A stretch of DNA of 63,534 nucleotides, filler included, from Nitrospinota bacterium (lineage in GTDB: Bacteria; JAUXIQ01): NCBI GenBank assembly GCA_030620925.1. It is 13 parts of 13 records of this genome, joined end to end, with 100 filler letters (N's around TTAATTAATTAA, not from the genome) between each part and the next. Parts side by side here need not be neighbours in the genome. Positions count along the whole stretch, not along the records: positions 11,657 to 16,730 come from JAUXIQ010000185.1; 12 more parts are not named here. One strand, given 5' to 3'. Below, piece by piece: positions 3,202-60,664 of this stretch. A program made the position numbers and the translations under genes. Position 1 is the first letter of the stretch. The number at the start of each line of letters is the position of its first letter. Below the pieces are notes generated by a model. It searched no databases. It had not been told where the DNA came from and saw only the letters and a program-made list of their open reading frames with translations.

Positions 3202-5000
3202 TGAAGCGAGGCGGAACAAGAAATTTTTCCATTATCGCCCATATAGACCACGGTAAGTCCACCCTTGCCGACAGGATACTTGAGCTCACCGGTGCCCTCA
3301 GCGAGCGGGAGATGCGGGAGCAGGTGCTGGATACAATGGAGCTGGAGCGTGAGCGCGGTATTACCATAAAGGCACAGACGGCCAGCTTGAATTACAGGGC
3401 GCCGGACGGGAAGGAATATTTGCTCAACCTCATAGATACGCCGGGTCACGTCGATTTCAGCTACGAAGTCTCCAAGAGCCTGCAAGCCTGCGAGGGGGTG
3501 CTCCTCCTGGTGGATGCCACTCAGGGGATCGAAGCCCAGACGCTTGCCAACGCACACCTGGCCGTGGAGCAGGGGCTGGAGATAATTCCGGTAATAAATA
3601 AGATAGATCTTCCCAGCGCGGACGTGGAGGGTGTGAAACGCCAGATGGAAGATGCCCTGGGTCTGGACGCTTCCGAGACGCTGGCCGTCAGCGCCAAGGA
3701 AGGTTGGGGCGTGGAAGAAGTCCTCGAGGCCATAGTTGAGAGGATTCCTGCGCCGCAAGGGGATGAGGAGGCACCCCTCAAGGCGTTGGTGGTGGACTCG
3801 CGGTTTGATCCCTACCGGGGCGCCGTGGTGCTCATCAGGGTGTTTGAAGGTAAGGTTGATGCGGGGGCGAAGATAATAATGGCTTCCACGCAAAAGGAGT
3901 ATGAGGTAAGCGAAGTGGGGGTTTTCACCCCGCGCATGGAAGAAGCGAGTTCCCTTGCGGCGGGTGAAGTAGGCTACCTGATAGCAGGGATCAAGCAGGT
4001 CAAAGACACCCGTATAGGAGATACTGTTACCGAACCGCGCCGGCCGACCGATGCGCCGCTCCCCGGCTTCAAAGAGGCCAAGCCCATGGTCTTCTGCGGT
4101 CTCTACCCGGTGGACAACGGGCAATACGATGAGCTGAAGGATGCGCTGGATAAGCTGTGGCTCAATGATTCCTCCTTCCATTATGAGGCTGAGACATCCA
4201 GCGCCCTTGGATTCGGCTTTCGCTGCGGCTTCCTGGGGATGCTGCACATGGAGATAGTGAGGGAACGGTTGGAGCGCGAATACGACCTGGAATTAATCAA
4301 CACCGCTCCCACAGTAGTCTACCAGGTGTTGAAAACCGACGGCAGCGTGCTATCCGTGGACAATCCTTCTAAACTTCCTCACCTCTCTTCCACCTCGGCC
4401 ATCGAAGAACCTTACGTGAACGCCACTTTGATCCTGCCCGATAAGTTTCTTGGGCCCATCCTGCAGCTGGCCCAAAACAGGCGGGGAGTGCACAAAGGCA
4501 TGGATTACCTGGATACCAGCAAGGCGCTCCTGCGGTATGAATTTCCCCTAAATGAAATAATAGTGGATTTTTATGATAAACTTAAATCTCTCAGCAAGGG
4601 TTATGCGTCTTTAGATTATGAGCCCGTGGGTTACCGGAGGTCGGACCTGGTGAAGCTGGACATCCTGATAAACGGTGAGCCGGTGGATTCGCTATCGCTT
4701 ATAGTGCACAGGGATAAGGCTTACCATAAAGGGAAACAGCTTATAACCAGGCTCCGGGAGGTGATTCCAAGACAGCTTTTCGAGGTGGTGGTGCAGGCCG
4801 CCATAGGCAACAAGATCATCGCCCGTGAATCGGTGTCGCCGCTCCGCAAAAACGTTACCGCCAAGTGTTACGGCGGGGACGTAACCAGAAAGCGGAAGCT
4901 GCTCGAGAGACAGAAGGAAGGCAAGAAACGCATGAAGAGCGTGGGGCGCGTGGAAGTGCCTCAGGAAGCGTTCACGGCGGTGCTTAAACTAGAGGACTGA
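3201..5000 (+). CDS. lepA: Elongation factor 4 (LepA)
   Basis: [45 protein letters not shown]. Start placed at ATG 3201, which overlaps the upstream TGA. Confidence 0.98.
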
Positions 5001-5013
5001 AGGAAAACCGGGA

Positions 5014-5598
5014 ATGGCAGACAAGGGAAAAAAAGTAAGGAAAAAATCGGCGAGCAGGGAATTCACAGAAGCCATAGTGATAGCCATCATAGCGGCCTTC
5101 TTGATCCGGGGCCTGGTGGTTCAGGCGTTCAAGATACCTTCGGGGTCCATGATACCAACGCTGGAGATCGGGGACCACATACTGGTGAATAAGTTTATCT
5201 ACAGGTTCAGAGAACCCAAGAGAGGGGATGTAATCGTATTCAAATTTCCGGGAGATGAGAAAAAGGATTACATTAAGCGCGTGGTGGGCCTTCCCGGGGA
5301 GTGGGTAGAAATGAAGGGGACCACCATTTACGTGAACGGTACGCCGCTTGACGAGACTTACACGCGCTACAACCACGGAATATCGCAGAGGAACGGCTTC
5401 CGCCCACTGTTCGTGCGGCCCGGTTACCTCTTCGTGATGGGGGATAACCGGGATAACAGCAGGGATAGTCGATCATGGGGACAATTGCAAATAGATAAGA
5501 TAAAGGGAAGGGCGTTCCTCATCTATTTTTCCTGGAACAAGCACGGAGATTTTACCCACAAGGTAAGGTGGGGCAGATTGGGAGATCGGATACATTAG
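5014..5598 (+). CDS. lepB: Signal peptidase I
   Basis: IPSGSMIPTL (Ser), YIKRVVG (Lys), MGDNRDNSRDSR; follows lepA. Confidence 0.97.
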   Translation: MADKGKKVRKKSASREFTEAIVIAIIAAFLIRGLVVQAFKIPSGSMIPTLEIGDHILVNKFIYRFREPKRGDVIVFKFPGDEKKDYIKRVVGLPGEWVEMKGTTIYVNGTPLDETYTRYNHGISQRNGFRPLFVRPGYLFVMGDNRDNSRDSRSWGQLQIDKIKGRAFLIYFSWNKHGDFTHKVRWGRLGDRIH

Positions 5599-6564: not shown

Positions 6565-6664
6565 NNNNNNNNNNNNNNNNNNNNNNNNNNNNNNNNNNNN
6601 NNNNNNNNTTAATTAATTAANNNNNNNNNNNNNNNNNNNNNNNNNNNNNNNNNNNNNNNNNNNN
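6565..6664. other. Artificial contig spacer
   Basis: 44 N + TTAATTAATTAA (stops in all six frames) + 44 N. Confidence 0.99.
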
Positions 6665-11556: not shown

Positions 11557-11656
11557 NNNNNNNNNNNNNNNNNNNNNNNNNNNNNNNNNNNNNNNNNNNN
11601 TTAATTAATTAANNNNNNNNNNNNNNNNNNNNNNNNNNNNNNNNNNNNNNNNNNNN
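11557..11656. other. Artificial contig spacer
   Basis: N44-TTAATTAATTAA-N44. Confidence 0.99.
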
Positions 11657-11864
11657 GATCAAAGGGCTCTTCGTGCAACTGGGTGACCCGGCGATTCTGG
11701 CCCAGCAGAAATCACTGGAGCTGCTCAGAATGATGATGAGTCGCGAGGCGCTCCTTTCCGCTTTCAGCGACGTTTACCTGATAGTGGGCCTGCTCATCAT
11801 GGCCACCATTATACCCGCGGTTTTCCTGCGCATCAGTCCGCCGAAGTCATCGGCGGTGGATTGA
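11657..11864 (+). CDS. C-terminus of DHA2-type MFS efflux transporter (partial)
   Basis: REALLSAFSDVYLIVGLLIMATIIPAVFL resembles the last TM helix of EmrB/QacA-type transporters. Confidence 0.6.
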
Positions 11865-11898
11865 TGCTCTTAAGAGATGGAAATTCTTATGGGATATG

Positions 11899-12672
11899 TT
11901 ATAAACCGATTTTTTTGAGGAGGTTTTCTGCGGCTGTTACGCTCGGTGAGGAGGGAGGCAGGTCGATTACCGGTTCCCCTCGAAAATCGTAGGCGGTAAC
12001 ATTTTCATCATCAGGTATATAACCGAAAATTTCCAGCCCCAGGGAGGACGCGGCGTCTTGCAGCTCCCCCTCGCGGCCCTTTACTTTGTTGATTACCAGA
12101 CCTTTCTTGCCCAGCTCCAGGGCCGGGTCGTTTTTTGCGATTTCCTGGATGAGGCCCGCTGTGCGGAACGCCCTGCTCGATGTGTCGGTCACCATCATGA
12201 GGACGTCTATCTTGGGGACCACGCGCCGGTTTATCTGCTCCGGCCCGGCTTCCCCGTCCACCACCGTCACGTCGTATTCTTTTGACAGCGTATCGATGCC
12301 GTAGCGCAGGAGGTCGTTCACGCTGCAGAAGCAGCCCGGTCCCTCGCCCCGCCCCATCAGCAGCAGGTCGAACCCCGCTCCCCGGTGGAGGCAGCTCTTC
12401 ATGCCCTCCCTGATATGCCGGCTCTCCAACTCTTTCCGCGCCGCGGGATCGTTGATGACCTCGTCGCGGATCTGCCCCACCGTCCTTTTTACCTCCACCC
12501 CCAGGGCGTGGGGAAGGCTCACCGCCGAATCGGCGTCTATGGCCAGAACGCTCTGCTTCCCTTCTCCGACCAGCACCTTGACCATCAGGGCTGAGAGCAC
12601 GGTCTTTCCTGTGCCCCCTTTGCCGGTAACGGCGATGACTGTGCCTTTTTTGTTTGTAGAGGTATTTTCCAT
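11899..12672 (-). CDS. CooC/AcsF-like MinD-type (SIMIBI) ATPase with CxC motif
   Basis: Deviant Walker A GKGGTGKT, IDAD, MGRGEGPGCFC, DGEAGPEQINRR, NK, IPDDE. Confidence 0.88.
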   Translation of the reverse strand: MENTSTNKKGTVIAVTGKGGTGKTVLSALMVKVLVGEGKQSVLAIDADSAVSLPHALGVEVKRTVGQIRDEVINDPAARKELESRHIREGMKSCLHRGAGFDLLLMGRGEGPGCFCSVNDLLRYGIDTLSKEYDVTVVDGEAGPEQINRRVVPKIDVLMMVTDTSSRAFRTAGLIQEIAKNDPALELGKKGLVINKVKGREGELQDAASSLGLEIFGYIPDDENVTAYDFRGEPVIDLPPSSPSVTAAENLLKKIGL

Positions 12673-12683
12673 TATGAGAATGT

Positions 12684-13940
12684 TCAGCCTAACAGGGTGG
12701 TAATAAAGTCTTGCAGCTGGGCCTTGATGGTATCCGACGATTTCATCCTGGGGTCTACGAAATCGATATCGAAGATGAAGATGGGTATGCCAAGCTCATC
12801 CTGTATGTTGTCTTTCACCAGCTTGATGGTGGCCCAGGCGTGTTTGCAGGCGAAGTTACCGGCGAAAATAGCTGCATCCGCCTTGTAGTCTCTGCATATA
12901 TTTATAACCATGTCAGAGTAAATCTCGTAAGGGCCGTTAGCCATGTGCCCCATAGGGGTATAGGTCAGTCTTTCGGCGAGGCCCAGAAAGATGGATTCCG
13001 TGTCGGAAACGTCTTCGATGGTGTTAGCTGAAAAGTTGCTCAATCCATCCTTAACCACCATGGCCCCGAACTCCCTCTCCATCCATCTGAAAATACCCGT
13101 ATCGAATAGGACGGGGGTGAACAGTGAAACCAGCCTTATTTTTTCTTCAGGGATGGGCCCTCTATTTTCCTCGACTGCGGCTTTACCTATTTCATACTGT
13201 TTTTTGTAGAACTCGACCAGCCCCGGGGTCCCAGACATACTGACGCATAAGCTGCCGGTTACCATCAAATGAAGTGAAGAAAGAGGACAGGGGACGTTTT
13301 TCCTGAGCTCGTTTATCTTCGCCAGGTAGCGCAAGGCTTCGTTGGAATATTCCACCACTTCCCGCAGCCTGTCCTCGTCGAGCTTCCTGCCGGTATGCTC
13401 CTCCAGGAAGGAGACGACTTTTTTCAGCTCCCCGGCCATGTATTTGTAGCTGCGCTCGTTTTGGGTATAAGGGGTGTCGATGCAGAAATGGGGAACGTCT
13501 AAATACTCCGCAATGGTGTCGAAGGAGGCCAATCCCGAATCGCAGGGATGCGCGGCGTGCACGATGGCGTCGGGGAGGGGTAAATCTCCCGCCATTGCGG
13601 CCCCGATCATGCCTTTATTGACCCCGCATATATGGTCCGGCACGTAGCGCTGCGCATAGTCCAGATATTTCATCAGCCCCTCCCGAGAACCCGCCAGCAA
13701 AGAGGATATTCCTTCCGGGGAAACGGGGAATATATCCATGGCATAAAATAGTTCGGGGATTGTGCCTGCGCTCATCCAGATAACCGGCTGGCCTCTATCC
13801 TTTGCGGTGTAGAGGTCTTCGTAGTATTTGGTATTCAGGTCGTAAATCCATTTATCTTCCGGCCTCTTCTCGGCAATGTGTTTATTAATGGCCTTAAAGT
13901 TTTCCGATAAATACTTAAATACATTCGTGCTCGCTTCCAT
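12684..13940 (-). CDS. 2-hydroxyacyl-CoA dehydratase family subunit, alpha-like, paralog 2
   Basis: PELFYAMD, DHICGVNKG, HPCDSG, FACKH (three cluster Cys), FLEEHTGRKLD, DFVDPR. Confidence 0.88.
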   Translation of the reverse strand: MEASTNVFKYLSENFKAINKHIAEKRPEDKWIYDLNTKYYEDLYTAKDRGQPVIWMSAGTIPELFYAMDIFPVSPEGISSLLAGSREGLMKYLDYAQRYVPDHICGVNKGMIGAAMAGDLPLPDAIVHAAHPCDSGLASFDTIAEYLDVPHFCIDTPYTQNERSYKYMAGELKKVVSFLEEHTGRKLDEDRLREVVEYSNEALRYLAKINELRKNVPCPLSSLHLMVTGSLCVSMSGTPGLVEFYKKQYEIGKAAVEENRGPIPEEKIRLVSLFTPVLFDTGIFRWMEREFGAMVVKDGLSNFSANTIEDVSDTESIFLGLAERLTYTPMGHMANGPYEIYSDMVINICRDYKADAAIFAGNFACKHAWATIKLVKDNIQDELGIPIFIFDIDFVDPRMKSSDTIKAQLQDFITTLLG

Positions 13941-14016
13941 TATTATTCCCCCTTAATTATTAATACGAACCGCCGCCGCGTTTTGAGAAGCTGCGCTCCG
14001 TTTTTTCACCGGTTGT

Positions 14017-15273
14017 TTAGTTTAGCAGGGTGGTGATAAAGTCCGCCAACTGGGCCTTTACGGTTTCCGACGATTTCATCCTGGGGTCGACGAAGTCTAA
14101 GTCAAAAATGAATGTGGGGATACCCAGCTCGTCGTAGATTTTATCCTTTATCAGTTGGATTATTGCCCATGCGTGCTTGCAGGCGAAGTTGCCGGCGAAA
14201 ATGGCTGCATCCGCTTTGTAGTCCCTGCATACCTCTATGGCCCAGTCGGAGTATATCTCTGTAGGGCCGTGGGCCTGATGTCCCATGGGCACACTGGTTA
14301 ACCTCCGGGCGAGGCCCATGAATATGGAGTCTCTGTCCGAAACGTTCTCAATGGGGTTGGCTGAGAAATGGCCCATCATATCCATGGTCACGATGGCCCC
14401 GAACTCTTTCTCCATCCAGTCGAAAATCCCCAGGTCGTAAAATATGGGGGTGTAAATCCATGCCAGCCGTATCTTTTCATCCGGCAAGTGGCCCTTATTT
14501 TCTTCGACGGCTGTTCTGGCTATTTCGTACTGCTTTTTGAGGTATTCAATTAACCCGGGGGTTCCCGATAAATTGAAGCATGCACTGGCGTTCAGCGTTA
14601 AAAACCATGAGGAAAGGGGACAGGGGACGTTTTTCCTAAGGTCGTTTATCTTTGTTAAGTAGCGCTGGGCCTCGTTGGAGTTTTCTACCACTTCCCGCAG
14701 CTTGTCCTCATCTAGCTTCCTGCCGGTATGCTCCTCCAGGAAGGACACCATCTTTTCCAACTCCCTGGCCAGATATCGGTAGCTCCGTTCGTCTTTGTAA
14801 TAAGGGGTGTCAATGCAGAACTGGGGGATATCTAAATACTCCGCAATGGTGTCGAAGGAGACCAGTCCTGAATCACAGGGATGCGCGGTGTGCACGATGG
14901 CGTCGGGCAGGGGCAAATCCCCGGCCAGGGCGGCCCCGATCATGCCCTTATTGACTCCGCACAGGTGGTCCGGCACAAAACGCTGCGCGTGGTCGAGATA
15001 TTTCACTACCCCCTCTGGCAAGAGAGAAAGGACTCCGGATAAATTCTCAGTGCAAACGGGGAAGGTATCCATGGCGTAAAATAGTTCAGGGGTAGCGCAG
15101 AAACTTCTCCAAACCACAGGCTGGCCCCTGTCTCTGGCTGTATAAAGGTCTTCATAGTATTTGGTATTCAGGTCATAAATCCATTTCTCTTCCGGCATAT
15201 TCTCGGTAATTTGTTTACCAATAGCCTTAAAATAATCCGAAATATCCTCCAATATGTTGGTACTCGCTTCCAT
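14017..15273 (-). CDS. 2-hydroxyacyl-CoA dehydratase family subunit, alpha-like, paralog 1
   Basis: Same motifs as the adjacent paralog. Start placed at MEASTN by parallel with paralog 2 and a GAGGGG RBS. Confidence 0.88.
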   Translation of the reverse strand: MEASTNILEDISDYFKAIGKQITENMPEEKWIYDLNTKYYEDLYTARDRGQPVVWRSFCATPELFYAMDTFPVCTENLSGVLSLLPEGVVKYLDHAQRFVPDHLCGVNKGMIGAALAGDLPLPDAIVHTAHPCDSGLVSFDTIAEYLDIPQFCIDTPYYKDERSYRYLARELEKMVSFLEEHTGRKLDEDKLREVVENSNEAQRYLTKINDLRKNVPCPLSSWFLTLNASACFNLSGTPGLIEYLKKQYEIARTAVEENKGHLPDEKIRLAWIYTPIFYDLGIFDWMEKEFGAIVTMDMMGHFSANPIENVSDRDSIFMGLARRLTSVPMGHQAHGPTEIYSDWAIEVCRDYKADAAIFAGNFACKHAWAIIQLIKDKIYDELGIPTFIFDLDFVDPRMKSSETVKAQLADFITTLLN

Positions 15274-15278
15274 CGCTG

Positions 15279-16400
15279 TCACCCCTCTACCATTTCTAAA
15301 AACGCATCCAGCCTGTTTTTTATCTGGCCCGCTCCGCTCAATTGATATTCCCGCTCCAGCGTCAGGACGGGGACACTATCTTCCTCTAATTTTTTATGGA
15401 TATACATCGATTCCCCGGCCCATAAATCGCAGTGGCGCATCCTCTGGTAAATCACGCCGTCCACCTTGAAACGGTCTATCATCTCCTTGATAAAACCATA
15501 TATTTGAGGAATCTGCCCGGCCATCCTGGAACAGGCCGGTCGGCTCAGGTATGCTCTGGCCAGGTTGGACATGATGTCGCCGTCCGTGGCCACCGGCTCC
15601 ATGGCATAACGGCTGCCGAAGCAGAGGCCGTCGGTCACCACCAGCCCCCCCGCTTCTTCGATAATCTGGGTGAACTCCAGGTCGTCGTAGGCGCTTCCAA
15701 CTATCATCAGTCGCGCCCTATAGTCGGTTGAGCCCTCCTTGCCCTTTATTTCCTCTAATAAATCTTTCAACATTGAATTAAACTGTTCCTTGGGCATGGC
15801 CGTACCCGCCAGCACCACCTGCTGGGTCTCGCTGCCGGAGATGGGAGGGTTATCCCCCTCCCTCAAGCTGTACAGTTCCTGGAGAAGCGCCCGGCTTTCG
15901 TTATAGACATCGATGGAATCCTTCAGCTTCTCTTCAGTGATCTCTGTATCGAAAGAACTTTTGAGGCTGTCGCAAAAGGTGGCTATTTCCTCGGTGAACC
16001 ACTGCACTGCGTCTTCATTGATCTTGTGCGGCACGCTTAAAAAATGCATGTAGTCACAGCCCACCTTTTCTTTCCAGATATCGTAAAGCCTGCGGATATG
16101 GTCGCAACTGTTCAAAGAGATCAACCCGTCAAGGAACTCGTATTCTCCCTTCAAAGCATATTCGAGGCAGCTTTTGACGAAAGTGCAGTTATAGGGAGAC
16201 ATGAGCGCGTCGGCCTCAGCCGTAGACTTGCAGCCTATGGGTCTCAGCCGGTAAGGGAGCGTTCCCGCCGCGTGAAGAACTTCTTCAGGCACGTAAGAGC
16301 AGAAATACCCGGTGATCTTCCCCCCCTTCTCTTTCCACTCTTTCGCAGCGGAATTATAGATGGTGTCTGCGATTTCGTTTATTTCCTCGAGGGGCGCCAT
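15279..16400 (-). CDS. 2-hydroxyacyl-CoA dehydratase family subunit, beta/double-cubane-like (Cys-rich)
   Basis: FCSYVPEE, NCTFVKS, NSCD, LCFGSRY, PACSRM, RHCD; C-terminal GQIKNRLDAFLEM. Confidence 0.88.
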   Translation of the reverse strand: MAPLEEINEIADTIYNSAAKEWKEKGGKITGYFCSYVPEEVLHAAGTLPYRLRPIGCKSTAEADALMSPYNCTFVKSCLEYALKGEYEFLDGLISLNSCDHIRRLYDIWKEKVGCDYMHFLSVPHKINEDAVQWFTEEIATFCDSLKSSFDTEITEEKLKDSIDVYNESRALLQELYSLREGDNPPISGSETQQVVLAGTAMPKEQFNSMLKDLLEEIKGKEGSTDYRARLMIVGSAYDDLEFTQIIEEAGGLVVTDGLCFGSRYAMEPVATDGDIMSNLARAYLSRPACSRMAGQIPQIYGFIKEMIDRFKVDGVIYQRMRHCDLWAGESMYIHKKLEEDSVPVLTLEREYQLSGAGQIKNRLDAFLEMVEG

Positions 16401-16469
16401 GGCTCTCTCCTTTTCGTAATCTCGACTAAAACATCAATGGCGTAAAACGATTGATTAGTATTTTCGCTC

Positions 16470-16497
16470 ACTATAGCACATTGTTGATGGTAGTCAA
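16470..16497 (-). promoter_or_regulatory. sigma70 promoter of the dehydratase-family/CooC operon
   Basis: Minus strand TTGACT-16 nt-TATAGT with extended TGn, about 70 nt before the AGGAG RBS/ATG at 16400. Confidence 0.6.
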
Positions 16498-16730
16498 TGA
16501 AGTACTTCCAATTGGCAGGATATGTCTTACGTTCACCCGCAGAATCAAAAGGATGAGCGGCGTTATCGGAAAAAGATATTAGATGGAGGAGGGCTTTGGA
16601 GTGGTTTATTATTATAAAGGTGTTTGCAGCATATAAAATTTTCACCGATTTAAAAGGAAATTAACTCGGACCGAGGATTATTGAGGATTATTTATGAGCA
16701 CGCCTGAAAAAATGGCCAGTAAAACGGGCC

Positions 16731-16830
16731 NNNNNNNNNNNNNNNNNNNNNNNNNNNNNNNNNNNNNNNNNNNNTTAATTAATTAANNNNNNNNNNNNNN
16801 NNNNNNNNNNNNNNNNNNNNNNNNNNNNNN
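16731..16830. other. Artificial contig spacer
   Basis: N44-TTAATTAATTAA-N44. Confidence 0.99.
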
Positions 16831-18585: not shown

Positions 18586-19695
18586 TCAGAGGGTCTCGGC
18601 CGCAGCTTTCAATCTTTCCGCTACATGTTCTACGAAGTCTACTTTCATCCCCGGCCAGAGGGGGAGGCTCATTACCTGTCTGGCCGCCCCTTCGGATATG
18701 GGAAAGCTCCCCTCTTCCATATTCAGATACTGGTATGCTTTTTGACGGTGAACCGGCAAGGTATAATATATTCCTGTAGAAACACCCTCTTCAGCCAACC
18801 TGTCTTTTAAGGTATCCCTGGTGTTAGCCCTGACTACGTAAAGGTGGTAAACGTGCTTTGCTCCTTCAATGCAGTGCGGAGTTATTATACCAGGGACATC
18901 TTTGAGAAGGCGATTATAGATTTCAGCATTCTCCCTCCTCTGCTGGTTCCAATGCTCCAGACGCCTGAGTTTTACCCGCAGCACCGCGGCCTGAATCTCA
19001 TCCATTCTGCCATTGACGCCTTCAAGGCCGTGCTCGTTCCAGGAGTTGCGGCCGTGATTTCTTAATGACTTCAGGGTTTCGTAAAGGTCTTTATCGTTGG
19101 TTACCACTGCTCCGGCGTCCCCCATAGCCCCCAGGTTTTTGGATGGGTAGAAGCTGAAGCAGGCGGCCCTGGAGATTCCTCCCACCCGGATACCTTTGTA
19201 CTCGGCCCCGTGGGCCTGGGCAGCATCCTCCAAAACCTCCAGGCCGTGCCGTTTGGCTATAGAATTAATGGGGTCCATGTCGGCGGGTTGTCCGTAAAGA
19301 TGAATGGGGATGATGGCCGCTGTTCTGGAGCTGATGGCCTCTTCCAGGAGGCCCGGGTTCATGTTGAAGGTATCCGGTAAAATGTCCACGAAGACGGGCC
19401 TGGCTCCAGTCAGGGTTATAGCCGCCGCTGTTCCCACGAAGGTGAAGGGGACAGTGATTACTTCGTCCCCCGAGCCTATGCCCATTGCTTTCAGAGCGAG
19501 ATAGAGGGCATCTGTTCCGGAAGATACCCCCACGGCATATCGGGCATCGCAGAAGGAAGCATATTCCTCTTCGAACAGGGCCACTTCCTCACCGCTTATG
19601 AAATGGCCGCGGCTGATTACAGAGTTGATGGCCTCCTTTATTTCGGCTTCTATAGCCGCGTGCTGTGCTTTAAGATCCATAAGAGGGATGATCAA
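18586..19695 (-). CDS. DegT/DnrJ/EryC1/StrS PLP-dependent sugar aminotransferase
   Basis: SSGTDAL, EDAAQAHG, SFYPSKNLG (PLP Lys), GRMDEIQAA. Confidence 0.93.
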   Translation of the reverse strand: MIIPLMDLKAQHAAIEAEIKEAINSVISRGHFISGEEVALFEEEYASFCDARYAVGVSSGTDALYLALKAMGIGSGDEVITVPFTFVGTAAAITLTGARPVFVDILPDTFNMNPGLLEEAISSRTAAIIPIHLYGQPADMDPINSIAKRHGLEVLEDAAQAHGAEYKGIRVGGISRAACFSFYPSKNLGAMGDAGAVVTNDKDLYETLKSLRNHGRNSWNEHGLEGVNGRMDEIQAAVLRVKLRRLEHWNQQRRENAEIYNRLLKDVPGIITPHCIEGAKHVYHLYVVRANTRDTLKDRLAEEGVSTGIYYTLPVHRQKAYQYLNMEEGSFPISEGAARQVMSLPLWPGMKVDFVEHVAERLKAAAETL

Positions 19696-30405: not shown

Positions 30406-31701
30406 TTAATGGCCGACAAGCGCAGGGGAGAGGACCCTTTTATTGCTCTTGCGACGCCGGTAAGTCTTGGTAAGCTCAAGGAAAATACCCACATCCCGCT
30501 CCAGGTCAGTCTGTGTGCCATCGAAGTAGAATATTTTTATGGGTAATCCTTCATGGTCGCGACTCACGGTGGGATAGATAGCCTCGCTGGTGATGCCGTT
30601 CATGCAGGTGAAGGGGCTGATGTCCACCACACCATCCGCCCCCTTATGGTAGAGATAAATCGTCTTACCCACGTTGAGCACCATTTCACCCAGTACTCCT
30701 TCCGGGGGTAGATAGGGTTTACTGTGATTCAGGACGGTTTTTATATCCTTGGGCTCCTCGTAACCCAGGAAGTCTTCATGAAAAGGCTCCAGCAGACTGT
30801 GCTCATCCTTCTTCTGAAACAGGTTCTTGAGCCATACTCGAAGCATCTCTCTTGAAAACCGTTTCCCCCTGCGAATGAGCCCCTGAGTCTGGCCCCAATT
30901 GGTATACCATACCCACTCGGAGATGTCCGCCATCCAGGCCTCCCCGCCCTGTTCTTCGATGACCCTGACTAAGTCATCATTGCTGAAGCGGTTGAGCCGA
31001 CAAAATATTTCTCCTACCACACCGATAAGCGGCCGCTCGGAGTCATACTTTATGGGAATCGCATTAAACTTCTTCCTGCATTCAGCAAGCGTTTCCACCA
31101 TCCTTTCCAGGCGCTGTTCTTGATCTATCCCCTGCACTTCGATGACGGCACAGAGGAGATCGAGGCACTCTTCAAACACCCGGTCCGTCTCTCCCTTGTT
31201 TATTTCATAGGGTCTGGTCTGGAGCAGCTTTTTACGTATAATATCGGCGGCCACCAACGCCCGCCAGGCGGTGCGCATCAACTCCCCGGCGTGCTCTCCC
31301 ACACCCTCGTAACCGTTAGCTGCGGAAGGGGAACAGACCATCGCTTCGGGGTGGCCCATATCGTCCAGCAGTCTTCGTAAATAGGGAGCATACTGGCCGA
31401 ATCGGCACGGACCGTTAGCGGTGGGCATGAAAAAAGCGGTCTTCTCGGGTTGAAAATCGCCGCTCTGGATGATCTTCATAAAATCTCCCACGGTGACCTT
31501 CTGCGGGTAACACTCGTCCCCGGAAGTAAACATCCCCCCCAGCTCGAGGGTGCGCTCATCCGAGTCGGGGGAGAGTGTGGCGTCAATACCGATTGACCTG
31601 AAGGCGGCGGCAAAGGTGCGCGCGCCGGTGTAGGTCATCCTGGGAATATAAAGAGTCCGTCCTTCTAAAGACTGGCCGTTTGAGGAGCTTGCTGCCACCA
31701 T
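30406..31701 (-). CDS. Partner of the CoA-activase/DUF2229 protein (2-hydroxyglutaryl-CoA dehydratase-like)
   Basis: SGDECYP, GPCRFGQY, VVGEIFCR, SPFTCMNG; overlaps the upstream gene by 37 nt. Confidence 0.82.
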   Translation of the reverse strand: MVAASSSNGQSLEGRTLYIPRMTYTGARTFAAAFRSIGIDATLSPDSDERTLELGGMFTSGDECYPQKVTVGDFMKIIQSGDFQPEKTAFFMPTANGPCRFGQYAPYLRRLLDDMGHPEAMVCSPSAANGYEGVGEHAGELMRTAWRALVAADIIRKKLLQTRPYEINKGETDRVFEECLDLLCAVIEVQGIDQEQRLERMVETLAECRKKFNAIPIKYDSERPLIGVVGEIFCRLNRFSNDDLVRVIEEQGGEAWMADISEWVWYTNWGQTQGLIRRGKRFSREMLRVWLKNLFQKKDEHSLLEPFHEDFLGYEEPKDIKTVLNHSKPYLPPEGVLGEMVLNVGKTIYLYHKGADGVVDISPFTCMNGITSEAIYPTVSRDHEGLPIKIFYFDGTQTDLERDVGIFLELTKTYRRRKSNKRVLSPALVGH

Positions 31702-34700
31702 CTTAACATCCCTTTACTGTCTAAATACGCTTCGCAGCGGGTCATCATTCCCGCGTCGTTGCTGTGCCCGTCGAACTGTAGGGAAAGAAAAGGTTTGCCT
31801 GAAGCGTTGTTGACAAAATGCTTGATAAATGAGTCTGGCCCGCACTTGAAGTTGGTGAGATATATGATATGCAGGTTCGGGAACTGACTGACGATCCTCG
31901 CCGCGGCAAGTATCTTTCGCCCGTAGCTCCAGTACATGTTGTTGTTTATATCCTCGATGTCAACTTCGTCCACAGGGAGAAAATCCATGGGGATGACGTT
32001 TATGCCGTAGTAGTCCCGGAGCTTGGAAGGGACGTCCAGGTTCACCCCTTTATCGTAAATGTTGTAAGGCCGCCCCACCAGTACTATCCCCGGCTCACCG
32101 CTCTCTTTCAAACGCTGAAGCGCTTCCTGTCCCAAATCCTGCAGCCTGTCTTGAAATTTTTCCTGAGCATCATAGGCCCGCTCAACGGCTATCTCAGCTT
32201 GATCCCTCAGAATCTTATATTTCCTGGCCAACTTTACTAATACCTCGGTGACACTTTTTCGCCCATCGCGAAACCTGATGGTGGGCTTGATAAAAATATC
32301 ACTCCTGGACTCGAAAAAGGGCGACCGCCCTATCACAAAAGGCAGCGTCTGCCCCCAGGGACAGACGTGAGATTCCACCGCCGGATCGAAGGCTTCCGCG
32401 TTTACCTGGTTGGGCAGAAAAACATAATCGACGCCCATGCCCATAAGCTCAGCCACGTGCCCGTGCGCAACCTGTATGGGAAAACAGGGTTCAGCCACAG
32501 TGTACTCTATTCCTTCATGCGCGATGCTCTTGTTGGTCCGGGTTGAGACCTGCACGCTGAAGCCGATGTTCTCGAAAAAGGTACGCCAGAAGGGAAACCT
32601 CTCGTAGGTGTACATTGTGAGGGGAATGCCTATGGTGGGCCCGGAATTGGAAGGCCGTAACGTCCCACCGAACATCATCTCATTTCTCATTTCCTGAAGG
32701 TCGGGGATAACGGGCTTTCGCTCCGTCTTCGCCTGCTTACGGTAGCGGTCGGAGCATTTATCACCCCAATAGGTTTTCTCTCCCTCTACATCGAACATCT
32801 GTATATCGCAGAAATTGGTGCAGCCCTGGCAGGAGAATTCCTTGAGGCTGTAATCTACATCTTCAATCTCGTAGCCGCGGAAACCTGTTTCCCCTTCAGT
32901 GTTTTTCATCTTATCCATGGCCAGGAGGGCTGCGCCTATGGCTCCTATAACTCCGTTGTGAGGAGGAACGATTATCTGTTTATTCAATATTTTGGAGAAG
33001 GCTGCGGCCACGGAGTCGTTGTACGCCGTTCCTCCCTGAAAGAAGATGGTCTCTCCGATCCTCCGCCCCCACACCACGCGGTTAATGTAGTTATAAGCAA
33101 TGGAATAGGCCAGGCCCGCCAAAAGGTCTTCTTTCTTCGCCCCGCGCTGGAGGTAGGAGTTGACGTCCTGCTCCATGAACACAGTGCAGCGCTCGCCCAG
33201 GCGTATGGGGCTAGAAGAACTGAGGGCCAATTGAGCAAACTGGTCCTTTATGCTGACTTCAAGCTCTTCGGCCCGCTCCTCCAGAAAGGAGCCGGTGCCC
33301 GCGGCGCAGGCTTCGTTCATGGCGAAGTCCACAACCACACCGTTATCAAGGCTTATGAACTTGGAGTCCTGTCCGCCGATTTCAAAAATGGTGTCCGCCT
33401 CCGAGCTGATCAGCTTATTGCCGATATAGTTGGCGCCCGTCTTGTGGGCGGTAATTTCGTCGTTGATTGTGTCGGCGCCCACCAGTTGCCCTATGAGCTC
33501 CCTGCCGGAACCCGTAGTGCCCACACCTTTCACTCTGACGCGGCCGCCCAATTCATCCCGCATCTCCGCCAGCCCGCGGGCCACAGCCTGTATGGGCCGG
33601 GCTTCGGTACGGGTATATATTTCGTAAACCACTTCGCCGTTTTCGTCTGCCATCACCAGGTTAGTGCTCACAGAGCCTATGTCTATCCCCAGATAGACAT
33701 CTACCGGTTGCCCGTCATCAGGTAAATTATAAGGTTTCACCCTGTCTCTCAGGAGGAGGACGTTGTCCATGGATAGAGGATCACTTACCGGGAACTGATC
33801 GACCTGTTCGTGGTTTCGTATGGAGGCCGGAGCCGATACCGTTTCGCCACCGCTTGCTTCGGCTTCCATCAGCGCAGCACCCAGGGCCCCCAGCCAGGCA
33901 TAATAGGCGGGTATGAAGAGCTCTCCCTCCTTCAGGTCAAACACCTCCTCCATTGCCGCCACCACACCGGCGTTAGCAGCAACACCGCCGGTGAAAGCTA
34001 TGACCGGCTCTATCTTCTTCCCCTTGGTGATCGCACCCTTGAAGTTGCGGGCGACGGCATCACACAGACCCTTAAGCACCTCAGCCGGTAGATAGCCCTT
34101 TTGCTGGGCGTGGATCATATCGGATTTGGCGAACACAGAGCAGCGGCCGGCTATCTTGGCCGCTTTGGAGGTTTTCTGAACGATTGCCCCCACTTCGTCT
34201 ATTTCGTATTTAAGGCGCAGGGCCTGTTGGTCCATGAAAGAGCCTGTACCCGCGGCGCAATCGCCGTTCGTCTCGTAGTCCGCTATTCCCATTCGGCCCC
34301 ATGCCCTATCCCGCTCAAATCTGATATATTTAGAGTTTTGTCCACCCATTTCAAACAGGGTGCGAACGTCAGGGTAGAGGGCCTCGGTACCCCGGGTTAT
34401 GGCTTTAAACTCATTTTCGACATTGGCGCCCAGGATTCCTCCCACCAGTTTAGCTCCCGCTCCCACTATTCGTATGCCCTTCAATTCTTCCTGAGGCACC
34501 AGCGAAAGAATCTCTTCGAGTATTCGACGCGCGGCATCGATAGGTTGGCCCCGCATCCTGCGGTACTCAGAGACAAGGGTCGGGAACGAATAACCCGCAT
34601 CGATCTCGGCATCCCCGCCCATCACCCTGAACCCTGCACGGTTGATCGCTTCCGTCGGCGGAAGCTCATCCCCGTTCGTTCTCAACAGGGCCGCTTTTAT

Positions 34701-34739
34701 GCTGACAGTTCCGATATCGATTCCAGCGAAATAGGACAT
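31665..34739 (-). CDS. Acyl-CoA dehydratase activase with two ASKHA (BadF/BcrAD) domains plus DUF2229-like domain
   Basis: GIDIGTVS and GIDIGSVS; GGQNSK and GGQDSK; CAAGTGSF twice; RCSVF/RCTVF; CQGCTNFC; PCFPIQVAHGH; NFKCGPDSF. Confidence 0.9.
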   Translation of the reverse strand: MSYFAGIDIGTVSIKAALLRTNGDELPPTEAINRAGFRVMGGDAEIDAGYSFPTLVSEYRRMRGQPIDAARRILEEILSLVPQEELKGIRIVGAGAKLVGGILGANVENEFKAITRGTEALYPDVRTLFEMGGQNSKYIRFERDRAWGRMGIADYETNGDCAAGTGSFMDQQALRLKYEIDEVGAIVQKTSKAAKIAGRCSVFAKSDMIHAQQKGYLPAEVLKGLCDAVARNFKGAITKGKKIEPVIAFTGGVAANAGVVAAMEEVFDLKEGELFIPAYYAWLGALGAALMEAEASGGETVSAPASIRNHEQVDQFPVSDPLSMDNVLLLRDRVKPYNLPDDGQPVDVYLGIDIGSVSTNLVMADENGEVVYEIYTRTEARPIQAVARGLAEMRDELGGRVRVKGVGTTGSGRELIGQLVGADTINDEITAHKTGANYIGNKLISSEADTIFEIGGQDSKFISLDNGVVVDFAMNEACAAGTGSFLEERAEELEVSIKDQFAQLALSSSSPIRLGERCTVFMEQDVNSYLQRGAKKEDLLAGLAYSIAYNYINRVVWGRRIGETIFFQGGTAYNDSVAAAFSKILNKQIIVPPHNGVIGAIGAALLAMDKMKNTEGETGFRGYEIEDVDYSLKEFSCQGCTNFCDIQMFDVEGEKTYWGDKCSDRYRKQAKTERKPVIPDLQEMRNEMMFGGTLRPSNSGPTIGIPLTMYTYERFPFWRTFFENIGFSVQVSTRTNKSIAHEGIEYTVAEPCFPIQVAHGHVAELMGMGVDYVFLPNQVNAEAFDPAVESHVCPWGQTLPFVIGRSPFFESRSDIFIKPTIRFRDGRKSVTEVLVKLARKYKILRDQAEIAVERAYDAQEKFQDRLQDLGQEALQRLKESGEPGIVLVGRPYNIYDKGVNLDVPSKLRDYYGINVIPMDFLPVDEVDIEDINNNMYWSYGRKILAAARIVSQFPNLHIIYLTNFKCGPDSFIKHFVNNASGKPFLSLQFDGHSNDAGMMTRCEAYLDSKGMLRWWQQAPQTASL

Positions 34740-57765: not shown

Positions 57766-59591
57766 ACCTATCTACGGGTAGCATAGAAAAAAAGCCGGTC
57801 ACCGAAAAGATGGTGGAGACGGCGCTGGGAGGGATGGGGTTCAGCGCCAAGATACTTTATGACAGCCTTCCCTCCGGTATCGACCCCTACTCCTCCGACA
57901 ACCTCTTTATTTACGCCGCCGGAGTTCTGGCGGGAACCCTGATTCCCGGCTCCTGCCGAACGGAAATAACGTTTAAATCACCGCTCAGTGGCCTTTTCGG
58001 CGATTCCAATTCAGCCGCCCCCGCCCAGATGTTAAAGTGGGCCGGATACGACGCGCTGGTGGTAAGCGGGAAATCGGAAAAACCCGTATACATCAAGATA
58101 GACGATGACAACGTCTCCATAGAAGACGCCGGCCACCTTTGGGGTAAGGACAATTACCAGACGGTGGACATCCTGTGGGATGAATTCCCCGGCTGCTGGG
58201 TCTCCTCCATAGGACCCGCCGGCGAGAACCTTGTCCGCTACGCCAACGTGCTCAACAACAAGACCTCCTCCTTCGGCCGCACCGGCGTGGGAACCATCAT
58301 GGGCGCAAAAAAGGTCAAGGCGGTCGCCGTGCGGGGCACCAAGTCGGTGAAAGCGGCCGATCCACCTGCATTCATGAAGCTGGTGAGGCGCATAACCGAC
58401 GACCTGATGGATCAGCCCTACGTATACCAGTGGCGCGATCTGGGCACCCTTATACAGTTTCAGGACTTCGCCCCCGGTTCCCGGGAGACCCTGGACGCCC
58501 ACGGGTCCGAACAGTTGGACATGGGGGACTGGACACGCCACTACAAGGAAAACGTCAAGAGCGGACTGCATACCTGCCACATCTGCCCCGTGGGCTGCAA
58601 GGCCCAGATAAAAATAGAAGAAGGCAAACACAAGGGACTCGACTTCAACATCTCCTGCCCGGCGGGGACGCTGACCCTCCCCTTTCTTGGCATACTGCAG
58701 CTTCCCTACGAAGATGTCCCCAAGTTCTCCGAGATATGCAACAGGTTGGGGCTGGATACGCTGGAATCCACCTCCATGCTCCTGTTCGCCACCCACTGCT
58801 TCGAAAACGAAGTGATAACCACCGCCGACACCGGCGGCCTTCAGTTCCACAAAGGATTCGCCGATGAGTACGCCCAGCTGCTCACCGACATCGCCCACAG
58901 AAAGGGCCTGGGAGATATCATGGCCGATGGGGTGGTGGGCGCGGCACAGAGGATAGGCGAAGGGGCAAAACCCTTCAGCGGAAATATCAAGGGCTGGAGG
59001 ATGGAACAGGAAGAATTTCTGCGCTGGAGCACCGTCACCTTCGGCCCCGCGGTAAATCCCCGCGGCCCCCAGTTGAACCAATACAGCTCCATCACCCACA
59101 TGCCCGACAGGTCAGAAGAATCCCTCCTGCGTTATGTAAATCGCATCGGTGTGCCGGAGGAGCACATCAAACGAGTAGTCACCGGCGGCACCGACGGCTT
59201 CGACACACCCTTAATGACCTACTACGCGGAGCTTTTTAACAATATCGTCTTTGCCATGAGCATGTGCAATCGGCCCTTTTTCAGCCGGGTCATGGACCTG
59301 AACACATTCACCGAGCTATTCAATACATCCACAGGTCTCGATTACAGCCCCGAAAAGTTGATGAAGGCCGCCGAACGGATTATTAATATCAAAAGACTGT
59401 TCAACGTGCGGGAAGGGGCCGCCAGAAAAGACGATTGTTACCCCGAGGGGCATCTTCCCCCGGAAAGGGAAAAGGAATTCCAGGGGTTCCTGAACAGGTA
59501 TTACCAGGCACACGGATGGGATGAGGAGACGGGTATCCCCACCCCCCAGAAGCTGGAGGAGCTTTCCCTCGAAGACCCTCTCAACAGGTAA
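57766..59591 (+). CDS. Tungsten aldehyde:ferredoxin oxidoreductase (AOR/WOR) family, divergent (5' truncated)
   Basis: Frame open to the contig edge (LSTGSIE...); KSPLSG, LKWAGYD, IGPAGENLV, GRTGVGTIMGAK, CHICPVGC, NRLGLDT, FNVREG, YY..HGWDEETGIPT. Confidence 0.9.
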
Positions 59592-59602: not shown

Positions 59603-60664
59603 GTGTCCATCCTTTTCGAACCCACCGATTTTCTGAGTCTTAAGTTAAAAAACAGGTTCGTCAGATCGGCCACGGCGGAGAATTTGGCCGGCCCGGACGG
59701 AAGGGTGACAGACGACTTTCTCTCGCTCTATACCTCTCTGGCCGACGGTCAAATAGGGCTAATAATTACCAGCGCCGTGCTACCTCGCAGGGATTGGTTC
59801 CCCGCACCGGTTCCCGGCCTGCTGTTCCTGGATGAAGACGACGTCATCCCCGGCTTGAAGAAGCTGGTCCAGGCGATTCATTCCAGGGGTTCCGCCGTTA
59901 TCATGCAGATGGTTCCTCCCGCCATGATGGGTGGTGAAGCGGTGGGGCCCAGCCCTCAGGAAAGTGAGCAAGAATCTCCGGATGTCCGGCCAATGACCGT
60001 TCATGAAATCGAGGCCGCCGCCATGGCCATGGGAGAAGCGGGCAGAAGAGCCCGGGAGGCGGGGTTCGACGGCGTGCAGCTGCACGTCTGCCACGGTGAT
60101 ACACTGAGCAAATTCATCTCCGCCCTGTTCAACCGGAGGAGCGACAGATACGGGGGAACACCGGATAACAGGGCGCGGTTTCTATCAGAGACGGTGCGCA
60201 CCATAAAAGAGGCCGCGGGCGAAGACTACCCGGTGCTGGTCAAAATGAACGCCTCCGATTTCTGCCCCGGCGGCATGACCCTTGACGATTCGGCGGCCAT
60301 AGCCCAGATCATCTGCCGGAACGGCGTCTCCGCCATCGAACCATCCGGCGGTGGACCGGGGGCAAATTACACCGCCAGGGGCCCCGTGGATAAAAACCTG
60401 TGGCACGAAGGCTACTTCGTCGACTTCGCGGCCAGGATCAAACGAGAGGTGGACGCTCCAGTGCTGGCGGTGGGAGGCTTCAGGAGCATTCAGCAGGCGG
60501 AAAAAGTCATCCAGGAGGGCAAGGCCGACCTCATCTCCCTGTGCCGCCCGTTCATAAGAGAGCCGGACCTGATAAAAAGGTGGATGAAAGGAGATACCCG
60601 GCCGTCGGATTGCACCTCCTGCGACGGTTGTATCGCCAGATACCGGAGTATGAAGCCCATCTGC
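59603..60664 (+). CDS. NADH:flavin oxidoreductase / Old Yellow Enzyme family with CxxCxxC (3' truncated)
   Basis: LKNRFVRSAT, AGFDGVQLHVCHG, NRRSDRYGG, VGGFR, CRPFIREPDL, CTSCDGC. Confidence 0.92.

Follow-up and report, generated by a model that had tools for sequence, protein, structure and literature searches.

A conserved pairing of a CooC/AcsF-type ATPase with BzdNO-like enzyme genes in a Nitrospinota bacterium and its relatives: a candidate accessory maturation system

The genes described here form a compact operon of the Nitrospinota bacterium JAUXIQ01 (GenBank assembly GCA_030620925.1), in which subunits related to class I benzoyl-CoA reductases (BCR) and 2-hydroxyacyl-CoA dehydratases (HAD) are encoded together with an ATPase of the CooC/AcsF type. 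The stretch analysed, hereafter the window, is 63,534 nucleotides long, filler included, and consists of 13 contigs of 2.6–9.1 kb joined end to end, with N runs around TTAATTAATTAA as spacers (6565–6664, 11557–11656, 16731–16830 and nine others within positions 1–63534); because the contigs were joined in this way, gene neighbourhood across the spacers has no meaning. The operon contig (JAUXIQ010000185.1) covers positions 11657–16730 (5,074 bp) and has N spacers on both sides. It carries four minus-strand open reading frames (ORFs) in the order beta, alpha A, alpha B and ATPase: a BzdN/HadC-like beta subunit with six cluster-type Cys (15279–16400, 373 aa), the HadB/BzdO-like alpha paralog A (14017–15282, 421 aa from a GTG start or 418 aa from an ATG three codons in; Cys108/136/368), the HadB/BzdO-like, catalytic-type alpha paralog B (12684–13940, 418 aa; Cys105/133/365) and an AcsF/CooC-family, MinD-class ATPase with the motifs GKGGTGKT and GPGCFC (11899–12672, 257 aa; Cys114 and Cys116). 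In Pfam searches beta (E 8.8e-96), alpha A (E 2e-63) and alpha B (E 1.4e-65) all matched the HGD-D family PF06050. Beta and alpha A overlap by 4 nt, whereas gaps of 76 nt and 11 nt separate alpha A from alpha B and alpha B from the ATPase gene.

The original prediction, made from the DNA alone, had described four closely spaced minus-strand genes behind a promoter, ending at a convergent major facilitator superfamily (MFS) gene and complete within one contig. The four ORFs were confirmed at their positions. The non-coding DNA 5' of beta (∼290 bp) includes a sigma-70-like match on the same strand (16470–16497; TTGACT, a 16-nt spacer and TG-TATAGT) that agrees with the consensus at 10 of 12 positions and has the TG extension; it stands as a consensus match only, such sites not being enriched in the region (2, versus 4.4 ± 2.0 in shuffles). 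A divergent ORF begins at 16695 but runs off the contig after only 12 codons, and a convergent plus-strand ORF (11658–11864), a 68-residue C-terminal fragment, lies on the other side. Judged from these flanking ORFs the transcription unit looks complete; however, as the contig measures only 5,074 bp and is one of 13 joined pieces, "complete" applies to the operon alone and not to the wider neighbourhood of the system. The convergent orientation on the left flank was thus borne out, but the 68-residue ORF had no significant Pfam match and its MFS identity found no support in that search.

Comparison of beta with proteins of solved structure placed it closest to BzdN (8S02_B, E 5.8e-49), followed by HadC, MbdN and the double-cubane cluster protein (DCCP). 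Among the NCBIfam models double_cubane (NF040772) scored best, at 229 bits against a cut-off of 350, and the scores for BzdN (173.5 versus 453.8 bits) and HadC (170.3 versus 700 bits) were also below cut-off. In BzdN the [8Fe-9S] cluster is bound by Cys36/73/100/263/293/327 (Fuchs et al., PMC11971306; this and the other publications are cited here from portions of their text). Pairwise alignment with 8S02_B put Cys34/72/99/260/290/324 of beta at these six positions, and all six were invariant in 73/73 related beta rows. The subunit had been called double-cubane-like, and the conserved ligand set bears this out even though the double_cubane score remains under its cut-off. A seventh Cys, Cys57, was present in 49 of the 51 rows encoded beside the ATPase module versus 10 of the 22 other beta rows. 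It aligns with a Glu in BzdN and a Gln in HadC, a few residues past the position of the BzdN Arg in contact with the distal sub-cluster, and may be an additional ligand. When the Cys and His residues of beta and alpha proteins encoded beside and away from the ATPase gene were compared, Cys57 was the sole difference and no extra metal site was found; the "away" paralogs share the same operons, so this comparison holds no true negative control.

The two alpha proteins are 72% identical, and both are of the three-Cys [4Fe-4S] type, in agreement with the prediction of two dehydratase-alpha paralogs. In a 95-row alpha tree the window alphas are sister rows, each the closest to the other; by this tree the duplication is lineage-specific and tandem. 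A separate tandem duplication of alpha was observed in a metagenome-assembled genome of the Dehalococcoidia (locus L034, 2469–3737 and 3911–5170, within a cluster of two ASKHA genes, beta, two alphas and the ATPase gene), the copies of which are not sisters of the window pair. The best solved relatives of alpha B were HadB (3O3M_A, E 1.6e-15) and BzdO (8S02_A, E 2.1e-14). Its Cys105/133/365 align with Cys95/128/380 of BzdO, the ligands of the [4Fe-4S] cluster in that protein (PMC11971306), and these positions are conserved in 95/95, 94/95 and 94/95 alpha rows, respectively. Of the catalytic residues Glu65 and His131 of BzdO, the former has its counterpart in alpha in the pairwise alignment, and the position of the latter is occupied by Gly in alpha B. 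The NCBIfam scores of alpha were under the cut-offs for BzdO (70.8 versus 448.6 bits) and HadB (85.4 versus 750 bits). Because His131 is replaced by Gly and no equivalog cut-off is reached, the substrate is, on this evidence, probably not benzoyl-CoA.

The ATPase falls in the CbiA/MinD class of Pfam. The Walker A motif GKGGTGKT occupies residues 17–24, of which G17, K18, G19, G20, G22 and K23 were invariant in both alignments of relatives, and Cys114 and Cys116 of the GPGCFC motif were likewise invariant in these alignments (21 and 43 relatives). CooC1 was its best sequence match in the PDB (3KJE, E 4.9e-10, 42.7 bits; MinD, 36.3 bits), so that the gene is CooC-like with both motifs in its translation, as had been read from the DNA. 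GPGCFC aligns with GSQCYC of CooC1; no CxC was present in the aligned MinD chains. The AlphaFold2 model of the ATPase (mean predicted local distance difference test score, pLDDT, 85.5) was compared with the PDB by Foldseek, and since MinD, FleN, NifH and CooC1 all scored a template modelling score (TM) of ∼0.7, the subfamily cannot be told from the fold. There is no CooC/AcsF model in NCBIfam, and the canonical proteins of the reference locus introduced below likewise match MinD models only, below cut-off. The models of NifH-like reductases were not reached (nifH, 18.6 versus 394 bits; CfbC, 19.8 versus 402 bits), and the NifH-type spacing of two ligand Cys was not found, the CxC pair being the sole invariant Cys. 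A search among proteins of 451–2000 aa returned no fused form of the ATPase at E ≤ 1e-20, which is weak evidence. Several sources name these ATPases "CO dehydrogenase maturation factor".

For comparison with ATPases of known context we used a single reference locus (L081, from the acetogen Acetoanaerobium noterae, NZ_CP154629.1), the sole record obtained by tblastn of the plasmid collection. It is a Wood-Ljungdahl cluster with a CooC-type ATPase gene after cooS; the gene for an AcsF-type ATPase lies further along, directly before acsD/C/E/B. AcsF is the ATPase reported to insert Ni into the A-cluster of acetyl-CoA synthase (ACS; Gregg et al. 2016, as cited in PMC10134865). The window ATPase is 35.5% identical to the AcsF-type protein over its full length (E 1e-55) and 28% identical to the CooC-type protein (E 8e-18); with the former it shares MGRxEGxGC[YF]C, GPGCFC being aligned with GTGCYC. 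Relatives of the window ATPase are numerous, with 1,111 clusters at E ≤ 1e-10 among 2,742 candidates scored and, in 1.84 billion representatives, 2,084 matches at E ≤ 0.001, 761 at E ≤ 1e-10 and 193 at E ≤ 1e-30. In a tree of 84 rows (IQ-TREE, "quick" mode) 81 ATPases linked to HGD-D genes formed one clade on a long stem (SH-aLRT 97), with the AcsF-type reference next outside and the CooC-type reference as outgroup. A FastTree of 135 of 150 library representatives (230–300 aa), 22 linked rows and the two references placed the 22 linked rows together with 10 representatives in a clade (99) nested in a 67-row clade (99), and the AcsF-type reference in another clade of 74 rows (98). A separate CooC/AcsF clade had been put forward as a check on the prediction, and the linked ATPases indeed stood apart from both references; an own clade for them is supported, with one AcsF-type and one CooC-type reference and with the second tree built by a fast method. 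One locus (L046) carries, besides the usual ATPase after alpha, a second and highly divergent CooC-like ATPase (4777–5526) that lies just before the ASKHA pair and is closest to the CooC-type reference (E 2.5e-34).

The association of the ATPase with HGD-D genes is conserved well beyond the window. We examined the best 80 of 101 loci confirmed by a scan with the ATPase profile, one genome per species, in which ORFs were labelled by phmmer with the window's own proteins as queries. HGD-D genes lay within 3 kb of the ATPase gene in 73/80 loci and anywhere in the locus in 74/80, and alpha was directly upstream of the ATPase gene in 65/80. The usual gene order was beta-alpha-ATPase, and in several loci (e.g., L019, L020, L027, L035) alpha runs up to or into the ATPase gene. 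Six loci were devoid of HGD-D genes: four (L028, L038, L041, L050) have a short flank on at least one side, and two have longer ones (L004, 3.4 kb upstream and 4.4 kb downstream; L005, 10 kb on each side). By phylum, 44 loci belong to Bacillota, 22 to Chloroflexota and 7 to Thermodesulfobacteriota, 2 each come from records labelled Myxococcota and Pseudomonadota, and 3 are without phylum. Genes of CO dehydrogenase/acetyl-CoA synthase (CODH/ACS), the usual company of CooC-type ATPases, did not accompany the system: none of the 80 loci matched CooS, AcsB, AcsC or AcsD of the reference locus (phmmer), none was found by Pfam in 27 representatives of neighbour clusters, in 134 ORFs of 10 loci or in 71 ORFs of 11 loci, and none occurred on the operon contig or among the 52 window ORFs. 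Both the linkage and the absence of CODH/ACS had been noted for the unit, and both extend to the related loci.

The unit had further been said to lack an ASKHA activator. This is true of the operon contig, in which Pfam detected no ASKHA gene, but it is not a property of the family: at least one ASKHA gene was present in 40/80 loci and two in 36/80, and 25 of the 35 loci with ≥5 kb upstream and ≥3 kb downstream carry ASKHA gene(s). With b, a and K standing for beta, alpha and the ASKHA gene, common orders were K-K-b-a-ATPase, b-a-ATPase-K-K and b-a-K-ATPase; in Oscillospiraceae the order was b-a-b-a-K-K-ferredoxin-b-a-ATPase, and the locus of the nearest ATPase relative of the window (L001) reads ATPase-K-K-ferredoxin. 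The larger K passed the NCBI BzdQ equivalog cut-off of 380.2 bits in L027 (389.1 bits) and L069 (400.5 bits). As the ASKHA genes lie in the same clusters as the ATPase gene, the ATPase would be an extra component and not a substitute electron activator. Chloroflexota are sparsely provided, K being present in only 4 of their 22 loci, and 10 well-covered loci without ASKHA genes leave room for an electron-donor role of the ATPase there. In the JAUXIQ01 genome, a protein of 1024 aa encoded on another window contig has two BcrAD_BadFG (ASKHA) domains and DUF2229 (31668–34739, minus strand); the next ORF, of 431 aa, matches DUF2229 weakly (30409–31701, minus strand; Pfam). The genome thus has ASKHA-type activase modules on a different contig, which are candidate partners of the operon. 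A conserved 91-aa, Cys-rich, ferredoxin-like ORF (L069, 2429–2701, and 15 homologs), with no Pfam match at E ≤ 1e-5, lies between beta and the two ASKHA genes in Oscillospiraceae operons; in L001 it comes after those two genes.

Several neighbouring genes point to nickel. A CsoR-family gene starts ≤70 bp after the ATPase gene in 21 loci (within L048–L079; e.g., L069 6134–6505), all from Oscillospiraceae or unclassified Clostridia, and another lies 3.3 kb away. The encoded protein has a His-rich N-terminal stretch and a Cys...His...Cys pattern, and among proteins of solved structure it is closest to the Ni sensor InrS (5FMN, E 2.5e-21, 79 bits, versus ∼50 bits for CsoR copper sensors), with the HPHVH and C-H-C positions aligned and conserved between the two. 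In InrS, Cys53, His78 and Cys82 are needed for Ni(II) binding, although the same source cautions against predicting the metal sensed from the fingerprint (PMC4235346). In L031, the 20.7-kb locus of Sporomusa silvacetica DSM 10669, a b-a-ATPase-...-K-K cluster is flanked by three hyp genes (at 3421–3774, 3823–4497 and 18976–19323), two of them for HypA and one for HypB, and no other hyp genes were found in that locus; in L028 a HypA gene (4561–4926) lies four genes after the ATPase gene. These nickel leads are suggestive and phylogenetically narrow. A link of HypA/HypB to isoprene reductase was considered and dropped, the HypA/HypB-linked oxidoreductase of A. wieringae being a 901-aa glutamate-synthase-like protein and not the amine-oxidase-type neighbour.

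Other recurrent neighbours were family-I CoA-transferase (29 loci), enoyl-CoA hydratase, acyl-CoA dehydrogenase with electron-transfer flavoprotein (ETF), thiolase, short-chain dehydrogenase/reductase and regulators of the MarR and LuxR families, to which Dehalococcoidia add a 339-aa Fer4 protein, flavodoxin, FAD_binding_4/CCG pairs and GMC oxidoreductases. This neighbourhood fits acyl- or aryl-CoA metabolism without naming a substrate; from the CoA-transferase, hydratase, dehydrogenase/ETF and thiolase genes we infer an acyl- or aryl-CoA. The 339-aa protein is encoded after the ATPase gene (L007, 11709–12725, with homologs in 13 loci), often beside the flavodoxin gene, and consists of a 270-aa N-terminal part and a C-terminal 2x[4Fe-4S] ferredoxin domain, the latter being the sole part that matched solved structures. 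On a different contig of the window, a 5'-truncated protein of the aldehyde:ferredoxin-oxidoreductase family (57768–59588, plus strand) is directly followed by an Old-Yellow-Enzyme-type flavoprotein (59603–60664, plus strand). Both families include aryl-CoA reductases.

A physical association of the ATPase with its partners was approached by complex prediction, as the original prediction had proposed for the ATPase dimer and each subunit; it was run with alpha B. Two ATPase copies and alpha B, with alignments of 43 rows, scored 0.38 (runs 0.35, 0.48 and 0.38), whereas the best of three controls scored 0.00. Of 157 solved complexes 116 passed the mark used, as did 2 of 215 mismatched pairs, and passing scores ≤0.60 comprised 18 of the 157 solved complexes and both of the passing mismatches. 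At least 78% of the contacts agreed between runs and the partner pLDDT was ≥77; no interface was reported. The prediction gives weak support to binding of alpha B by the ATPase dimer.

The system resembles several known ones and coincides with none of them. As in the Bzd system (BzdNOPQ; 8S02, PMC11971306), beta is closest to BzdN and retains its six [8Fe-9S] Cys, the three BzdO Cys and the aligned Glu65 are present in alpha, and relatives carry two different ASKHA genes, one of which reaches the BzdQ cut-off. Unlike Bzd, the window alpha and beta score far under the BzdO and BzdN cut-offs, with His131 replaced by Gly in alpha B; the alpha gene is duplicated, the BzdP/BzdQ-type ASKHA pair (found in 36/80 relatives) is missing from the window operon, and the cluster includes a CooC/AcsF-type ATPase, which is not reported for bzd in the available portion of PMC11971306. 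HAD systems (HadBC/HadI, HgdAB/HgdC) share PF06050 alpha and beta subunits, the single ASKHA gene of some relatives (b-a-K-ATPase in L003, L010 and L023) and, in the had/hgd clusters, the CoA-transferase, enoyl-CoA hydratase and acyl-CoA dehydrogenase/ETF neighbours. They differ in that HAD beta subunits have lost the full double-cubane Cys set and keep a single [4Fe-4S]/[4Fe-5S] site (PMC11971306), whereas the window beta retains all six Cys, the HadB and HadC cut-offs are not reached and an extra ATPase is encoded. With DCCP and its reductase DCCP-R (6ENO, 7YYL) beta has in common the six-Cys [8Fe-9S] site and the top-scoring model, but DCCP is a one-gene homodimer served by an ASKHA reductase, in contrast to the heteromeric arrangement with a three-Cys alpha found here and the score below 350 bits. 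The ATPase is like AcsF and CooC1 in its MinD-class fold, its deviant Walker A, its CxC and the extended motif shared with the AcsF-type reference; it is unlike them in its separate clade and in lying nearly always beside HGD-D and in 0/80 loci beside CODH/ACS, and its Ni role is putative, by analogy. Table 1 of a review on double-cubane proteins pairs the superfamily with ASKHA ATPases only and gives MinD-class ATPases solely for nitrogenase-like systems (PMC7317905), and a 2026 study of CODH genomic context treats CooC, in the portion consulted, only beside CODH (PMC13056359). In a full-text literature search that reached few subscription journals, no paper was found that links CooC/AcsF-type ATPases with HAD, BCR or DCCP genes; the pairing is apparently undescribed.

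We propose that the enzyme specified by the operon is heteromeric, of the radical Fe-S kind, and a member of the class I benzoyl-CoA reductase/2-hydroxyacyl-CoA dehydratase superfamily. Beta should carry an [8Fe-9S] double cubane serving for electron entry and storage, the catalytic alpha would carry a three-Cys [4Fe-4S] cluster, and the duplicated alpha would probably yield two isoenzymes with one common beta. The ATPase, as an ATP-dependent dimer with an interfacial CxC, would deliver a metal (most likely nickel) to alpha-beta or complete or repair a cluster in it, a role suggested by its CooC/AcsF homology and its fixed place right after alpha. The low-potential electron would be supplied by ASKHA activators, whose genes share the cluster in most relatives and would lie elsewhere in the genome here. 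Nickel is the first candidate metal because of the homology, the invariant CxC, the InrS-like genes and HypA/HypB. This picture of a BzdNO-like enzyme with a dedicated accessory maturation ATPase, probably for Ni, and with electrons from ASKHA proteins is one that we judge to be evenly poised between right and wrong. Several observations weigh against it. The complex score is weak, and a pass at this level tends to be wrong if the complex was not already likely; no nickel or heterometal site is visible in alpha or beta, which show only the BzdNO-type Cys set, the subfamily-specific Cys57 of beta being the one exception; the trees hold a single reference of known context for each of the AcsF and CooC types; and Foldseek does not separate CooC1 from MinD or NifH. 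In addition, 10 of the 35 well-covered loci, most of them from Dehalococcoidia, lack any ASKHA gene within 10 kb (0/134 ORFs with PF01869), InrS-like genes occur in a single related group (Oscillospiraceae and kin) and may reflect few evolutionary events, and HypA/HypB occur in just 2/80 loci. A more ambitious version, which we think rather unlikely, holds that alpha-beta is a new nickel enzyme: the AcsF-like ATPase would install Ni beside or into an Fe-S cluster, as in ACS/CODH, InrS-like sensors would tie expression to nickel and, more boldly still, in lineages devoid of ASKHA genes the ATPase would also act as an ATP-driven electron gate.

The same proteins could be read without a heterometal. 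The ATPase would then be an Fe-S assembly or repair factor, whose dimer with four interfacial Cys, from two CxC motifs, carries a transient [4Fe-4S] cluster or sulfide and helps to build or fuse the double cubane of beta or to reload the labile alpha cluster. Analogues exist, as NifH aids P-cluster maturation and Mrp/NBP35 proteins carry clusters, and the ATPase belongs to the Mrp/MinD class that includes such carriers, with weak NCBIfam matches to MrpORP. The strict conservation of the six double-cubane Cys in beta agrees with this idea, and so does Cys57, which accompanies the ATPase module and is not a Cys in BzdN or HadC. However, Mrp/NBP35 carriers have a CxxC motif and not the CxC of this ATPase, the closest relatives whose context is known are Ni-insertion ATPases, and the InrS-like and HypA/HypB neighbours suggest nickel over iron. 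The double cubane is described as resembling P-cluster precursors (PMC7317905), but the portions of text available report no such factor for a bzd-type reductase or DCCP (PMC11971306, PMC7317905), and we consider Fe-S assembly without a heterometal an unlikely explanation.

The two roles offered by the original prediction were maturation and a NifH-like partnership, and the first is favoured. The second, an ATP-driven electron donor that replaces or supplements ASKHA proteins at least in lineages without them (the window and many Dehalococcoidia), draws on the bare window operon, the 10 well-covered loci and the few Chloroflexota loci with K already mentioned, on the ferredoxin-domain and flavodoxin genes that stand just after the ATPase gene in ASKHA-less loci, and on the nitrogenase Fe protein fold of the model (TM ∼0.7). 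It is disfavoured by the occurrence of the same ATPase clade in one operon with ASKHA genes in half of the loci, L001 included, by the CxC as sole invariant Cys and the low nifH score, and by the ASKHA domains encoded on another contig of the window; moreover, many of the loci without K are short contigs. We regard an electron-donor role as quite improbable, the 10 loci notwithstanding. The linkage might finally have no cofactor meaning, the ATPase being a MinD/ParA-like positioning or regulatory protein or serving the FAD-dependent and GMC oxidoreductases of the neighbourhood. The fold and the NCBIfam matches are equally good to MinD and FleN, and flavin oxidoreductase genes do recur nearby. 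But HGD-D genes accompany the ATPase in 73/80 loci versus ≤29 loci for any other neighbour cluster, the CxC typical of CooC/AcsF is invariant, and the alpha stop and ATPase start abut or overlap in several loci, which makes this the least probable account by our estimate and a very improbable one.

Taken together, known parts are apparently joined here in a conserved, undescribed combination. If a dedicated CooC/AcsF-type ATPase does serve a BzdNO-like enzyme, it would represent an unrecognised maturation step, possibly with a heterometal, or a second ATPase class for the superfamily, and the routine annotation of these ATPase genes as "CO dehydrogenase maturation factor" would have to be corrected. 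The carriers of the system include the cultured Sporomusa silvacetica DSM 10669.

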